Of a stretch of 36,532 nt of DNA, positions 22,729 through 27,067 are shown piece after piece. Source of the DNA: Eubacteriales bacterium (GTDB lineage: Bacteria; Bacillota; Clostridia; Oscillospirales; UMGS1783); the NCBI GenBank assembly GCA_045599805.1, contig JAZRWQ010000059.1, positions 1 to 36,532 of the forward strand. Direction: 5' to 3'. The stretch's first letter is position 1, and each line of letters begins with the position of its first letter. Position numbers and translations under genes: made by a program. The notes under the pieces were generated by a model. The model saw only the letters and a list, made by a program, of their open reading frames with translations, searched no databases and was not told where the DNA came from.

Positions 22729-22746
22729 AAAAAGAAGCGCCCTTTA
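22729..22746. repeat. Left arm of a split palindrome (ancestral bidirectional terminator)
   Basis: AAAAAGAAGCGCCCTTTA starts right after the AraC stop codon. It is the exact reverse complement of 27050-27067. Confidence 0.75.
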
Positions 22747-22814
22747 GCGCAGTGTTCATAAAACAGTAATACTGAAAATGAGCACTGTTGCTATCGGGTT
22801 GGCTAAGAAAAAGT

Positions 22815-22864
22815 AAAGCGTGATATTTCATACCATTAGGTGTGGAGTATTACGCTTTTTTCAT
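22815..22864. terminator. Hairpin with flanking A/T tracts near the left end of the island
   Basis: 11-bp stem AAAGCGTGATA/TATTACGCTTT with one G-U pair and a 22-nt loop, followed by a T run. Could terminate read-through from AraC and also the - strand ORF. Confidence 0.4.
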
Positions 22865-22865
22865 T

Positions 22866-23144
22866 TTATCTGCGTTTTCCTTTGCGGCCGCGTTGATTAG
22901 TGCCGGACTTTAATTTCTTTGAACGGTTCAGAGCCTTCATAAGAACAGTGAATTCTTCTGGCGACAGGCTCTTGTAGTCCAATCCAAGTTGATGACATAA
23001 GAGAAAAAGCTGTGTCTCTTTTGCGCTTCCTTTGAAATTGGTAGCTTCTTCAATCCCTTCTCGGATCGTATCTGCAACAGTTGTTTCCGGAGCGGTATCA
23101 AAATCCTTTGCGTGAGACAAGCGGATAACATGTTTTGCCGACAC
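22866..23144 (-). CDS. Hypothetical island protein (GTG start; possibly a gene fragment)
   Basis: The ORF has a basic C-terminal tail and no motif I recognise. The only start is GTG and I see no clear Shine-Dalgarno. Confidence 0.3.
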   Translation of the reverse strand: MSAKHVIRLSHAKDFDTAPETTVADTIREGIEEATNFKGSAKETQLFLLCHQLGLDYKSLSPEEFTVLMKALNRSKKLKSGTNQRGRKGKRR

Positions 23145-23189
23145 GCATAATGTGTTCGCCGGATGATGCGCTCGGAAAGGATGAATTTT

Positions 23190-23399
23190 ATGGATATCAG
23201 AAATGAGATCAAAGCTTATATCGTCCGTGAGGGCGTGACCATGAGCGAGGTTGTTGACCGCCTTGCTTATGAATATGACTGAAGCAGCAGTGTTCTAAAC
23301 CTGTCAGGCAAGCTTCGTCGTGGTTCTTTGCGCTATCAGGAGGCCATCGAGCTTGCAGATGTGCTGGGCTATGACATTGTCTGGCAGAAACGCAAATGA
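23190..23399 (+). pseudogene. XRE/HTH-like small regulator interrupted by an in-frame TGA
   Basis: ATG 23190 has AAAGGA upstream. The 69-codon frame is continuous apart from TGA at 23280-23282 (MDIRNEIKAYIVREGVTMSEVVDRLAYEYD*SSSVLNLSGKLRRGSLRYQEAIELADVLGYDIVWQKRK). From memory, relatives have Trp at this position. Confidence 0.55.
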
Positions 23400-23455
23400 G
23401 GTTATCGCTATGAAATCAGTTTTGAGAAAACGAGGTAAAAATGCCTATGGTTTGA

Positions 23456-24073
<618 letters not shown>

Positions 24074-24094
24074 GAGAGGCCTTTTTACAAGAAT

Positions 24095-24107
24095 GTGTAC
24101 TTTTCTG
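24095..24107. repeat. Left inverted repeat of the candidate invertible segment
   Basis: GTGTACTTTTCTG matches the reverse complement of 24225-24237 (GTGTACTTTACTG) at 12 of 13 positions, with a perfect 9-bp core. Confidence 0.4.
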
Positions 24108-24136
24108 CAAAAGTGCATAATACACCTATTTAACTT

Positions 24137-24165
24137 ATAATAGCATAATTCGACCTTCTCGTCAA
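24137..24165 (-). promoter_or_regulatory. Near-consensus promoter on the minus strand inside the candidate inverton
   Basis: Read on the - strand: TTGACG (24165-24160), 17 nt spacer, TATTAT (24142-24137) with a TGn extended -10. It currently points at the 3' end of the recombinase gene, away from the 24287 operon. Confidence 0.5.
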
Positions 24166-24224
24166 TATCTCCGAAGTAATATTTTTCGCTCTACAGCGAA
24201 GTTTCTGTGAGCAGTGCGGAATAA

Positions 24225-24237
24225 CAGTAAAGTACAC
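24225..24237. repeat. Right inverted repeat of the candidate invertible segment
   Basis: CAGTAAAGTACAC pairs with 24095-24107. It overlaps an AACAGTAA motif that also occurs at both island ends. Confidence 0.4.
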
Positions 24238-24286
24238 TTTTTAAAAATGATAGAACAATTCTATCAAAGAAGGGAGCGCATGTTCT

Positions 24287-24937
24287 ATGGATAACATTCA
24301 AGAACTGAAGAAACTTAAGGATTTACTTGATGAGGGTATTCTGACTCAGGAAGAATTTGATCAACAAAAGCGTAAATTATTAAGTGATGATGTGTCAGAT
24401 TCTGTTGATCAAAACAATGAACAGATTTCTGAAGTTGAAAAGCCTGTTAAGAAACCAATTAATAAGGCTATGTTAAAAAGAATCGGTATCATCGTTGGAG
24501 TGTTAGTTATACTTATTTGCGCAGTATTTGCTGGTAAAAATATTGTAAAACATAATCAGCAAAACAAGAGAGCCGACGCGCTTGAAATTGGAATTCAATC
24601 TATTATGAGTGACTATGGTATTTCACACTACGACGTAAGATATGTGGATTATCATTACGACGTGTACGCAGAGGGATTTGAATCTCTGACAAACGGTGAA
24701 GCATTAGAATGCTTAAAGGCTTTAGATGGGGTTTCTGTTGAAGATCCTTGCGGAGACGGCAAACTTGAATTTTATATGACTAATGTTCATCCGGGAATGG
24801 ATGTTGAATACTCTTATTGGAGAGTGTCCTCTGCGGCGGCTATGACGAATGAAATGTATGGTGGAATTGACAAAACGCCTGGCATCTACTGTAATAGAAG
24901 CGGATCGAGAAAATGTGTTTATGAATGTAAGAATTAA
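24287..24937 (+). CDS. SHOCT-domain protein: N-terminal SHOCT, single TM helix, Cys-containing C-terminal ectodomain
   Basis: LKKLKDLLDEGILTQEEFDQQKRKLL is a SHOCT-type motif and IGIIVGVLVILICAVFAG is the TM helix. GGGAG Shine-Dalgarno 10 nt upstream. Confidence 0.7.
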   Translation: MDNIQELKKLKDLLDEGILTQEEFDQQKRKLLSDDVSDSVDQNNEQISEVEKPVKKPINKAMLKRIGIIVGVLVILICAVFAGKNIVKHNQQNKRADALEIGIQSIMSDYGISHYDVRYVDYHYDVYAEGFESLTNGEALECLKALDGVSVEDPCGDGKLEFYMTNVHPGMDVEYSYWRVSSAAAMTNEMYGGIDKTPGIYCNRSGSRKCVYECKN

Positions 24938-24955
24938 GAGAGGATAGCATAAATA

Positions 24956-25573
24956 ATGAAGAGAAAGCTTACACTTGCATGTATAGTAATGCTCATAGTA
25001 GAAACAGTCTGCTTATTTATTCCATACTGCTTTGTTGAAGAATATTGGAAATATGAGGATTCTATCGTATATCATGGCCAATCCAGACTAATGAGGGAAA
25101 CTCCCGTTAGTATTTTCGGAATTTCTACTGCAACAGGAAAAGTATTAGCGATAATTCTCTTGATTTCATTATTAACCGCTGCTTTAGGATTTATAATGAC
25201 TTATGTCAAGAAACAAGAAAAGATTGGTAAATTCATCAATTTCGTGCCCTTGATTAATCTTGTTTTATTAGCTGTTTTTGCATTTTATGCATATGCCTTT
25301 GCGGAGAATGATACAGTATACGCACGATTTGAATGGAATATTAATTGGTTGTTCTATATCATCATTACACTTCAGATCGTTACTTGTATCTTTGGCCTGT
25401 TACTTCAATTTGAAAAGGAAGAGAAAGTCAAGACAATTCCGAGCAAGGTTGAAAACATAAATTCTATTGAGAGTGCTGCAGAAAAAGTAAGGCAGTATGA
25501 AGAGTTACTTGATTCTGGAGTTATTTCGCAGGAAGAGTTTGAAACCAAGAAAAAACAGATCCTCGGTCTGTAA
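24956..25573 (+). CDS. Four-TM membrane protein with C-terminal SHOCT domain
   Basis: Four hydrophobic helices, then VRQYEELLDSGVISQEEFETKKKQILGL (SHOCT-type) at the extreme C-terminus. Confidence 0.7.
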   Translation: MKRKLTLACIVMLIVETVCLFIPYCFVEEYWKYEDSIVYHGQSRLMRETPVSIFGISTATGKVLAIILLISLLTAALGFIMTYVKKQEKIGKFINFVPLINLVLLAVFAFYAYAFAENDTVYARFEWNINWLFYIIITLQIVTCIFGLLLQFEKEEKVKTIPSKVENINSIESAAEKVRQYEELLDSGVISQEEFETKKKQILGL

Positions 25574-25635
25574 ATGAAAGTAATTATGGGAGGTCGCAAG
25601 TAATTGCCCTCCCATTTTCTATATTGGAGGTATTT

Positions 25636-26247
25636 ATGGCTGGGATGACAGGCTTCATACATAGTTGCGTTGATGCCAAGCTTGAGAAGGCACCACATCA
25701 TTTAACATTGAAGGAATCCGGTTTTACAGATGATCAAATAAAAGTCCTATGGGATTTTTATGTATCACGGTCATTTGCTGCTGCCACCGGAAATCCAATA
25801 TCATTAGAGACTTGTGGCTGGCATGATACTCAGAGTAAAACTGATGGTTTTCCGGCATTAGAAAGTGTACTTTGCTCTACAGCCGGATTATCATCGTTCT
25901 GCATTATCAGAAATAAAACCATTAAAGATACCTTGAGTCAGATGGATTTGAGCAACGAGCGGATATGTGTATCTCATCCAAGAGCTGTGTTAACACAAAA
26001 CTTCACATATGAGTCGGATGAAAATGAAACTGTGAAAATTAAGTCTGGCGAAAGTCGTATAAATGCAATATTCCGTCATATTCGAAACTCTTTTGCACAC
26101 GGGAATACATATTTTTTCCCTACAGGGAATTGTTTGCTGATTGATAAAGATGGATCAAAAACGACCGCAGCAATTCTTGTCCCTAAGCAAGCGTTATGGG
26201 ACTGGATATCTATTGTTGATAAAAATAAAGCATATTACGATTTATGA
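25636..26247 (+). CDS. Hypothetical protein with an Rx4H HEPN-like motif (candidate RNase/abortive-infection effector)
   Basis: INAIFRHIRNSFAHGN contains R-N-S-F-A-H (Rx4H), in an IRNxxAHG context typical of several HEPN families. I chose ATG 25636, with GGAGG upstream, over TTG 25624. Confidence 0.55.
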   Translation: MAGMTGFIHSCVDAKLEKAPHHLTLKESGFTDDQIKVLWDFYVSRSFAAATGNPISLETCGWHDTQSKTDGFPALESVLCSTAGLSSFCIIRNKTIKDTLSQMDLSNERICVSHPRAVLTQNFTYESDENETVKIKSGESRINAIFRHIRNSFAHGNTYFFPTGNCLLIDKDGSKTTAAILVPKQALWDWISIVDKNKAYYDL

Positions 26248-26254
26248 ATTCTGC

Positions 26255-26290
26255 GCGATCAACTGTGAAAGGTTGATCGCTTTTTTATTT
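26255..26290 (+). terminator. Strong intrinsic terminator closing the three-gene operon
   Basis: 9-bp stem GCGATCAAC/GTTGATCGC (26255-26263 with 26272-26280), 8-nt loop, then TTTTTTATTT. Confidence 0.8.
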
Positions 26291-26308
26291 GGAGGAGGTG
26301 ATGCTCAT

Positions 26309-26581
26309 ATGGGAGAAAGAAAAATGCCCGAGTCTTTGGAAGCCCTGATGGAAGAAAAACAGAACGCCGAAGCAGAGCTTAACTACTGGGCTCATAAAGA
26401 AAAAATCCTTCGTCATCAGATAAAGGATCTCGCAAGAAAGGAACGAACTCACAGACTTTGTGTACGCGCTGGGATGCTAGAAAGCTTCCTTAAGGAGCCA
26501 GAACTGTTATCGGATGATCAGGTAATGGAACTTTTGAAAATTGCATGCAGAGAGCGCAAAACAGATTGCAGCGAACCGTAA
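26309..26581 (+). CDS. DUF3847-like coiled-coil protein of conjugative elements, probably 3'-altered by a deletion junction
   Basis: KERTHRLCVRAGMLESFLKEPELLSDDQVMELLK matches my memory of DUF3847 proteins. GGAGGAGG Shine-Dalgarno precedes ATG 26309. The last ~12 codons overlap the recombinase-fragment frame. Confidence 0.5.
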   Translation: MGERKMPESLEALMEEKQNAEAELNYWAHKEKILRHQIKDLARKERTHRLCVRAGMLESFLKEPELLSDDQVMELLKIACRERKTDCSEP

Positions 26582-26984
26582 GGCACTTGAACGAAGTGAG
26601 AAGCGTATCTCGGAGCTTAAGCGCCTGTTCATTAAGATTTACGAGGATAACGCAAGCGGTAAACTGAGTGATGAGCGTTTTGACATGATGAGTCAGACCT
26701 ATGAGGCTGAACAGAAAGAACTGGAAGCTGAGGTCATCCGCCTACAGAAAGAAATCGAAGTACAGGAAACACAGATTCAAAACATTGAGAAGTTTATTCA
26801 GAAATCCAGCCAGTATGTCGGCATCGAGGAACTTACATCCTATGTCCTTCATGAGCTGGTAAAGGCCATCTATGTAGATGCACCGGATAAGTCCAGCGGC
26901 AAGCGCAGACAGCATATCCACATCCAGTATGATGGACTGGGCTTCATCCCTCTGAATGAGCTTTTAACAAGTGAAAAGGCGTGA
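26541..26984 (+). pseudogene. C-terminal fragment (DUF4368-type tail) of a large serine recombinase; the catalytic N-terminus is missing
   Basis: SAKQIAANRKALERSEKRISELKRLFIKIYEDNASGKLSDERFDMMSQTYE...ELVKAIYV...IHIQY is the coiled-coil/C-terminal region of TndX-like recombinases. The frame is closed by TGA at 26535. No resolvase domain lies upstream. Confidence 0.65.
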
Positions 26985-27011
26985 CCAAAGCCACGCCTTC
27001 CCATCTTTTTT
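26976..27011 (+). terminator. Hairpin with a downstream T run after the recombinase fragment
   Basis: Stem AAGGCGTG/CACGCCTT (26976-26983 with 26992-26999). The T6 run starts 5 nt after the stem. Confidence 0.4.
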
Positions 27012-27049
27012 CAATTCTTAAACATTTACTGTTTTACGACGCACCGCCA

Positions 27050-27067
27050 TAAAGGGCGCTTCTTTTT
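27050..27067. repeat. Right arm of the split palindrome (ancestral bidirectional terminator)
   Basis: TAAAGGGCGCTTCTTTTT is the exact reverse complement of 22729-22746. It overlaps the ADH stop codon (27066-27068). Confidence 0.75.

Follow-up and report, generated by a model that had tools for sequence, protein, structure and literature searches.

The window analysed here, a stretch of 36,532 nucleotides of contig JAZRWQ010000059.1 (assembly GCA_045599805.1) from an Eubacteriales bacterium, contains an operon of three co-directional open reading frames (ORFs). The first two encode membrane proteins with SHOCT domains (proteins i and ii) and the third a HEPN-like protein. The operon lies downstream of a small serine recombinase gene, on what remains of a mobilizable element. 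Loci used for comparison are referred to by L-numbers. The parts of the operon are as follows.

24287-24937, plus strand: gene i, 216 aa; N-terminal SHOCT domain (predicted cytoplasmic), one transmembrane (TM) segment and a Cys-containing ectodomain.
24956-25573, plus strand: gene ii, 205 aa; 4-TM protein with a C-terminal SHOCT domain, the constant partner of gene i.
25508-25573, plus strand: SHOCT-coding 3' end of gene ii and right-hand cassette junction; homology to L055, L054 and L015 restarts at 25502-25517.
25586-25615, plus strand: hairpin with a T run (an attenuator or a terminator), conserved and travelling with the HEPN-like gene that follows it.
25636-26247, plus strand: HEPN-like gene (third gene), 203 aa; RNxxxH motif, from an unnamed family remotely similar to PF18736.
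26255-26290, plus strand: intrinsic terminator of the operon (hairpin 26255-26280 plus T run), found in a terminator scan and conserved in L215.

The three ORFs, the internal hairpin and the terminal terminator had been noted in a preliminary description of this DNA made from its letters, and all are present. So is the AT-richness of the unit, with a GC content of 0.36-0.37 over 24-26 kb versus ∼ 0.46 elsewhere in the window. Genes i and ii are separated by 18 nt, gene ii and the HEPN-like gene by 62 nt. The HEPN-like gene begins with an ATG preceded by a GGAGG ribosome-binding site, and the MAGM start is also found in homologues. The hairpin at 25586-25615 (folding energy -18.4 kcal/mol, z = -1.9) is kept in L055, L054, L015 and L013/14. 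Within 25586-25635, the ribosome-binding site (25627-25631) is complementary to the 3' arm of the hairpin (CCUCCC); through alternative pairing, the HEPN-like gene might thus be translationally coupled to the upstream gene.

Upstream of the operon, the preliminary description had placed a recombinase-associated promoter region. A promoter is present there, but its invertibility had been missed. The relevant features are these.

23465-24073, plus strand: small serine recombinase, intact, putative invertase (PF00239, E 7e-31).
24092-24103: left inverted repeat (core GTGTACTTT, 24095-24103), from a repeat and motif scan.
24104-24228: invertible segment of 125 bp, in the OFF orientation in the window.
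24137-24165, minus strand: near-consensus promoter TTGACG-17-TGnTATTAT, with 10/12 consensus positions, the best match in 4.4 kb.
24184-24201, plus strand: terminator-like hairpin within the segment, predicted to function in the OFF orientation only and there to stop transcripts that read through from the recombinase gene.
24229-24240: right inverted repeat AAAGTACACTTT, which doubles as the left boundary of the swappable cargo; L055 homology runs up to 24243.

Evidence for inversion comes from L215 and L216, two loci from sibling samples. Their flanks are identical, the 125-bp middle is 100% identical only when reverse-complemented, and the two differ solely by a precise flip of this segment between GTGTACTTT and AAAGTACAC. 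Misassembly is an unlikely source of the flip because the repeats are presumably shorter than the assembler k-mer. The window is colinear with L216. The promoter lies on the minus strand, directed away from the operon (OFF), in the window, L216 and L055, and on the plus strand (ON) in L215. Thus a repeat-flanked segment occurs in both orientations among relatives of the window, and the promoter inside it, recognized by its match to the consensus, faces the genes in one of the two. On these sequence grounds 24104-24228 is an inverton, and we predict that the adjacent recombinase, whose gene lies 213 nt upstream of the operon on the same strand, flips it. With both orientations seen in sibling contigs and a promoter in the segment, the operon would therefore be phase-variable cargo.

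The arrangement shares with Hin/Gin/Mpi-type invertons a short repeat-flanked promoter segment, found in both orientations next to the gene for a small serine recombinase. It differs in its setting, a Clostridial mobilizable element, and in what it would drive, swappable SHOCT membrane cargo together with a HEPN-like gene. It differs also in the recombinase, which has a sub-threshold match to an Mpi-type invertase and lies below every NCBIfam invertase threshold, and whose catalysis of the flip is predicted.

Similar sites recur in related loci. The right-repeat motif precedes the cargo in L055, L050, L058 (just upstream) and L015, and in the window the right-hand repeat marks the precise start of the variable cargo. 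For the window (minus strand) and for L215, L015 and L050 (plus strand), the top promoter-like match falls within the repeat-flanked segment or immediately ahead of it. L015 has a promoter (TTGACA-17-TATAGT) between two palindromic sites 126 bp apart; L050 has a comparable promoter before the single site visible in its short contig, and L001 has a variant site. L001-L004 were examined for a second example of inversion, and all four shared the same orientation. The 9-mer AAAGTACAC has three copies in the 36.5-kb window, all in the island, two of which are the inverted repeats.

A third exact copy of the 12-mer AAAGTACACTTT is found at 25862-25873 on the minus strand, inside the HEPN-like gene, inverted with respect to the right repeat (24229-24240) and direct with respect to the left. 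Close relatives have AAAGTGCACTTG at this site, with two mismatches, and encode ESALAS versus ESVLCS in the window. This copy may have arisen by chance, or may serve as a site at which a 1.6-kb inversion or deletion would disrupt the HEPN-like gene. A larger invertible segment bounded by it was not adopted, as the copy is absent from relatives.

The preliminary description proposed that the three genes form one system, with the membrane proteins as sensor or scaffold for a HEPN effector, and suggested that the trio be sought in other genomes. The comparison of loci argues against such a unit. Among 97 sequence-distinct HEPN-like loci, collected with the HEPN-like gene as query, the 96 other than the window have neither gene i nor gene ii; the trio is confined to the window and L215-217, which represent one element lineage. 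L055 is the most instructive relative. It has the same backbone as the window (Xre regulator, small DUF6471-like gene, recombinase, HEPN-like gene and DUF3847 gene), with 97% identity in the recombinase and 90% in the HEPN-like protein, but different SHOCT genes: a TM2-SHOCT gene and a 5TM-SHOCT gene replace i and ii between the recombinase and the HEPN-like gene. DNA homology between the two ends at 24243 and restarts at 25508, within the last ∼ 22 codons of gene ii, which encode its SHOCT domain. L013/14 have no SHOCT gene; there homology restarts at 25578, and both the hairpin and the HEPN-like gene are kept. These exchange breakpoints, with the pattern in L013/14, indicate that the membrane genes are an exchangeable cassette and that the hairpin and the HEPN-like gene are a separate block. 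The trio is thus best described not as a conserved three-component system, but as two separable modules in one operon.

The membrane pair is itself constant. Genes i and ii are paired in all six distinct contexts sampled, and in five of these no HEPN-like gene accompanies them, the exception being the element lineage of the window and L215-217. In L049, L053 and L218-222 the pair is surrounded by ordinary chromosomal genes (the protein of L218-222 is indexed in 57 blocks of the sequence collection), and in L051 a recombinase comes next. In L050 the slot of the HEPN-like gene is occupied by an unrelated 203-aa protein (L050:1570-2181, motif WWTAYNKVKHERT), which gave no match in Pfam, PADLOC or PHROG. 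We considered it as an analogous HEPN protein (YNKVKHERT) and did not count it as one, because it is without Pfam or PADLOC support. Amidoligase_2/GATase_6 genes lie close by in L050 on the opposite strand.

Both membrane proteins have a bona fide SHOCT domain (PF09851, Pfam cut-off 27 bits), N-terminal in protein i (residues 6-32, E 2.5e-9, 37.0 bits) and C-terminal in protein ii (residues 177-203, E 2.4e-9, 37.1 bits). By hydropathy protein i has a single TM segment and protein ii has four, so that domains and topology agree with those first proposed. By the positive-inside rule both SHOCT domains are predicted to be cytoplasmic. The domain itself is shared with described SHOCT proteins (PMC3581485; PMC11237479); the difference lies in the Cys-containing ectodomain of protein i. 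The AlphaFold2 (AF2) model of this protein has a long helix (60-102) followed by a confident α/β ectodomain. The ectodomain (residues ∼ 105-216, AF2 confidence > 90) is strongly conserved (VHPGLDVEYSYWRVSS, PGIYCN..G..CVYEC), with C210 invariant and C202 kept in ≥ 90% of homologues. It gave no match in a Pfam search, and Foldseek found no match for the protein i model in the PDB at E < 0.1. The ectodomain thus appears to be an undescribed extracellular domain. PHROG matches were limited to the SHOCT motif and uninformative. We infer a role for the pair in the cell envelope or in exclusion.

The third protein contains the motif FRHIRNSFAHGN (R150-N-S-F-A-H155), in agreement with the Rx4H motif first reported. 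It conforms to the R-x4-6-H (R-phi-x3-H) signature of the HEPN superfamily. In an alignment of 46 homologues H148, N151 and A154 are invariant and R147, R150 and H155 are kept in ≥ 90%, as is a family-specific N-terminal block (H9, C11, a WDFYV motif and a DENE motif). The family comprises 94 close cluster representatives, and a profile search extends it to 596 clusters (50% identity, E <= 1e-3). Its members come mainly from uncultured Ruminococcus, Lachnospiraceae, other Clostridia and Collinsella; tblastn found no match in PLSDB plasmids. The sole Pfam similarity of the protein is to a HEPN family, PF18736 (pEK499_p136), and is sub-threshold. Within the family, three of the 46 close members match PF18736 at E <= 0.01, and six of nine distant members score 16.8-21.6 bits.

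The likeness to pEK499_p136-like HEPN proteins (PMC3710099) includes the motif helix (x-h-R-N-S-x-A-H), the occurrence as standalone proteins of ∼ 170-220 aa in restriction-modification (R-M) and Pgl/BREX operons and, by inspection of the pEK499_p136 sequence, β strands and then a helix after the motif. The differences are that the window family falls below the Pfam threshold, with ∼ 25 residues that can be aligned, that its N-terminal half (H9, C11, WDFYV, DENE) is peculiar to it, and that it is absent from PLSDB plasmids. Among longer family members (P0193, P0265, P0270, P0300) there were no informative fusion domains. In P0193 (376 aa) the HEPN-like domain is fused to a C-terminal region with a second R-x4-H-like motif (LRCAVLHQGN) and no Pfam match; this protein may be a tandem HEPN arrangement.

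The genomic contexts of the family point to defence. About 31 of the 97 loci lie in BREX loci, 30 of them with the HEPN-like gene directly after the PglX methyltransferase gene, and insertion between the core BREX genes PglX and PglZ has occurred repeatedly. A type I HsdS gene precedes the HEPN-like gene in 4/97 loci, and AbiE or DUF1016 nuclease genes are further neighbours; ∼ 8/97 loci have a phage-like context. The family is thus embedded in R-M and Pgl/BREX operons, as are pEK499_p136-like HEPN proteins, for which Anantharaman et al. (2013; PMC3710099) draw a link to Pgl and R-M systems. In PMC12839542, HEPN proteins that stand alone in BREX loci are interpreted as backup effectors. With these and with AbiD/F, AbiU2 and AbiV the window protein shares a predicted RNase activity, a position in or beside defence systems and the lack of a visible dedicated antitoxin; it differs in that none is matched above threshold (PADLOC, Pfam and NCBIfam for the window protein, PADLOC for six homologues).

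Some loci have small or unusual neighbours of the HEPN-like gene. In L005 (4981-6660; also in L006) a Cys-rich ORF of 125 aa without a family match stands between two HEPN-like paralogues of 201 and 219 aa; this paralogue pair lies within a type I R-M locus, adjoining DUF2130. L008 has a comparable 134-aa ORF before its HEPN-like gene, within a BREX locus. These small ORFs may encode partner proteins. L001 (2752-5944) shows a related conjugative element in which two products are encoded in the slot that separates the recombinase gene from the HEPN-like gene: an Ltp-family lipoprotein, and a 714-aa protein with seven TM segments and an immunoglobulin-like surface domain. The Ltp family is one of superinfection exclusion in phages, a hint that variable cargo may act at the cell surface against phage.

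The island was first described as mobile-element cargo beside a recombinase. This description is borne out, and the element can be delimited as decayed and mobilizable. Its remaining features are the following.

22746-27045 (approximate limits): decayed integrated mobilizable element; homology to L055 starts at 22746, and an inverted repeat flanks the island.
22866-23144, minus strand: C-terminal remnant of a 275-aa Xre-type helix-turn-helix regulator, matching the C-terminus of L055:798-1625 (HTH_3, E 4e-12).
23163-23399, plus strand: small DUF6471-like gene with an in-frame stop (YEYD-stop-SSS versus YEYDWSSS in L055).
26309-26581, plus strand: DUF3847 gene (PF12958, E 9e-21), its 3' end altered by a deletion joint near 26546.
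26541-26984, plus strand: large serine recombinase, of which a C-terminal piece (DUF4368; PF14287, E 7e-19) without a catalytic domain is present.

The island is bounded exactly by a 26-nt inverted repeat (22729-22754 / 27042-27067, 88% complementary). The two arms resemble a split bidirectional terminator that lay between the convergent genes for an AraC-like protein and an alcohol dehydrogenase, suggesting insertion of the element into the loop of that hairpin. At the truncated Xre regulator ∼ 1.1 kb of L055 sequence is missing from the window. A deletion whose joint lies near 26546, where homology to both L055 and L215 ends, has removed all that stood between DUF3847 and the final 147 codons of the large serine recombinase. 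The intact relatives L215 and L216 carry recombinase, i, ii, HEPN-like gene, DUF3847 and a MobA/MobL relaxase; in L215 the relaxase is full-length and only the last bases of the recombinase are present at the start, and in L216 the recombinase is partial and the relaxase is cut by the contig end.

Taken together, we lean, if only by a little, towards a reading in which the operon is phase-variable cargo that joins a SHOCT membrane pair and a defence-island HEPN-like gene on a decayed mobilizable element. The operon promoter would sit on the 125-bp segment that the adjacent recombinase flips, and the window would represent the OFF state, with the promoter pointing away from the operon and the terminator-like hairpin facing the recombinase gene. 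Genes i and ii would form the first module, an exchangeable membrane cassette with cytoplasmic SHOCT domains and with SHOCT-coding sequence as one of its exchange junctions. The second would be the soluble HEPN-like protein (R-N-x3-H) with its own upstream hairpin, from a family found mainly in BREX/Pgl, type I R-M and other defence loci. This protein most probably acts alone, as an RNase-type abortive or 'backup' effector. Its predicted RNase activity and its putative anti-phage role, like all functions proposed here for the operon, are predictions from sequence, models and context.

Several results weigh against this reading. The window itself has one orientation of the switch only. Selection may have ceased to act on the genes, since the element has decayed. 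The window protein scores 13.6 bits against PF18736 (E 0.055), below the 26.6-bit cut-off, and no family member tested reached that threshold (best 21.6 versus 26.6 bits); a genuine pEK499_p136 protein scores 168 bits. By hhalign the family aligns with true pEK499_p136 in the motif helix only (∼ 25 residues, probability 7-10%), and when a family profile of 106 sequences was compared with it by hhalign and hmmsearch the alignment was again confined to that helix. Foldseek searches with the AF2 model of the HEPN-like protein gave nothing at E < 0.1 in the PDB and BFVD, and PADLOC (PADLOC-DB v2) gave no match for the three window proteins and six homologues or neighbours. Finally, a SHOCT gene precedes the HEPN-like gene at ∼ 20 times a rough background rate in at least three clades.

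This last observation is at odds with strict independence of the modules, which fails to explain it, and a looser link is possible. A protein ending in a SHOCT domain (PF09851, above threshold) is encoded directly upstream of the HEPN-like gene in eight of the 97 loci (window, L015, L054, L055, L058, L012, L025 and L035), whereas SHOCT ORFs make up a roughly estimated ∼ 0.4% of ORFs elsewhere in the fetched DNA. The HEPN-like proteins at these loci have 93% to 33% identity to that of the window. The bodies of the upstream proteins are unrelated (4TM, 5TM, 2TM with a β domain, soluble DUF4429, a 77-aa soluble protein, a 106-aa 2TM protein and a 53-aa mini-protein). The adjacency may reflect a functional partnership or, alternatively, shared residence in a cargo slot and recombination through the repeated SHOCT-coding sequence.

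A true SHOCT-HEPN partnership would have the upstream cytoplasmic SHOCT domain dock or restrain the HEPN-like effector at the membrane, with the variable N-terminal bodies (4TM, 5TM, DUF4429, tiny TM) as interchangeable sensors and i plus ii as one such module. The SHOCT end is indeed the sole constant part of the upstream proteins, and SHOCT-like domains are predicted to assemble membrane-associated complexes, according to PMC11237479. However, ∼ 90% of the family has no SHOCT neighbour, including L013 (82% identity), L001 (64%) and all BREX-embedded members, and the pair i plus ii mostly occurs without a HEPN-like gene. In the clade of the window, common descent and recombination via the SHOCT-coding repeat can account for the adjacency, and between the SHOCT gene and the HEPN-like gene stands a terminator-like hairpin. 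We therefore consider a partnership unlikely, though by no means far-fetched. Neither the pairing of i with ii nor the recurrent SHOCT/HEPN-like adjacency is mentioned in the available parts of PMC3581485 and PMC11237479 or in the titles and abstracts of SHOCT papers.

The weakness of the HEPN assignment bears on a second alternative, in which the third protein is a backbone protein of a mobile element or prophage (for example a regulatory or DNA/RNA-binding protein), neither a nuclease nor a defence protein. The R/H motif would then be structural or ligand-binding, and the defence neighbours would result from hitch-hiking in variable regions. The AF2 model (pLDDT 93, pTM 0.90) is an α/β fold with four long helices and ∼ 9 strands that is not recognizably HEPN. 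All Pfam matches are sub-threshold, there are none in PADLOC or PHROG, and several homologues lie amid phage structural-looking genes. A profile search of PDB sequences gave nothing, and NCBIfam and PHROG searches gave nothing informative. Yet R-N-x3-H is the canonical HEPN RNase motif, and H148, N151, A154, R150 and H155 are conserved family-wide. Repeated insertion between PglX and PglZ and after HsdS is a context described for HEPN effectors, and the order of helix, β strands and helix after the motif can likewise be read from the pEK499_p136 sequence. We give the backbone-protein alternative little credence. The HEPN identity originally put forward for the protein is upheld in part: the conserved R-x4-H motif, the sub-threshold PF18736 similarity and the defence contexts speak for it, and the α/β model, with no Foldseek match to a solved HEPN structure, against it. 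Because the scores are sub-threshold and the model is without a PDB or BFVD match, we regard the protein as best called 'HEPN-like, remotely pEK499_p136-like' and not as a member of PF18736.

A third alternative, an addiction or toxin-antitoxin-like module that stabilizes the element, with the membrane or the HEPN-like protein as toxin and a neighbour that neutralizes it, would suit both the frequency of HEPN toxins in toxin-antitoxin systems (PMC3710099) and the intactness of the genes in an otherwise decayed element, but is very unlikely, since the neighbours lack a minimal nucleotidyltransferase (MNT) or other known antitoxin domain (in Pfam and NCBIfam scans no neighbouring ORF had a nucleotidyltransferase domain, so that the adjacent antitoxin of HEPN-MNT systems was not found), each module is found without the other, and a promoter that can be switched OFF fits an addiction module poorly.

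The reading as phase-variable cargo, towards which we lean, places the operon close to kinds of system that are already known, namely invertons, recombinase-linked defence cargo and standalone HEPN effectors, and the operon is a variant of these. Rst_2TM_1TM_TIR is a multi-gene defence system of small TM proteins and a soluble effector. The operon resembles systems of this type superficially, with two small membrane proteins followed by a soluble effector; it differs in that PADLOC gave no match and that its membrane genes and effector do not recur as a conserved set. A further parallel is RADS (recombinase-associated defence loci), where, according to Andersen et al. (2026; PMC13552941), small serine recombinases are markers of anti-phage genes across Bacillota. 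Shared with RADS is a small serine recombinase directly upstream, and on the same strand, of defence-type cargo on a Bacillota mobile element. In that study inversion is postulated as a possible regulator of defence genes, whereas promoter inversion is actually seen here; the HEPN-like family and the SHOCT proteins go unmentioned in it.

We speculate further that invertase, invertible promoter, interchangeable SHOCT-bearing 'sensors' (membrane or peripheral proteins) and HEPN-like RNase could constitute a single phase-variable, cassette-swapping defence module, a rather improbable proposition as matters stand. If it were true, SHOCT would be a docking or regulatory handle for the effector and the SHOCT-coding sequence the joint for exchange of sensors; SHOCT would gain its first function, and there would be a mechanism for the marking of defence loci by small serine recombinases.

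If the phase-variable cargo reading holds, the locus would be a tangible example, verified in sequence, of a promoter inversion that lies next to a small serine recombinase gene and controls cargo of the defence type. It would also bring to light a sizeable unnamed HEPN-like family (∼ 600 clusters from gut and rumen Clostridia and Collinsella) that has no structural match and occurs repeatedly in BREX and R-M loci. For SHOCT, a domain of unknown function since 2013, it would provide the first recurrent genomic partner, and SHOCT-coding DNA would be a joint for cassette exchange.

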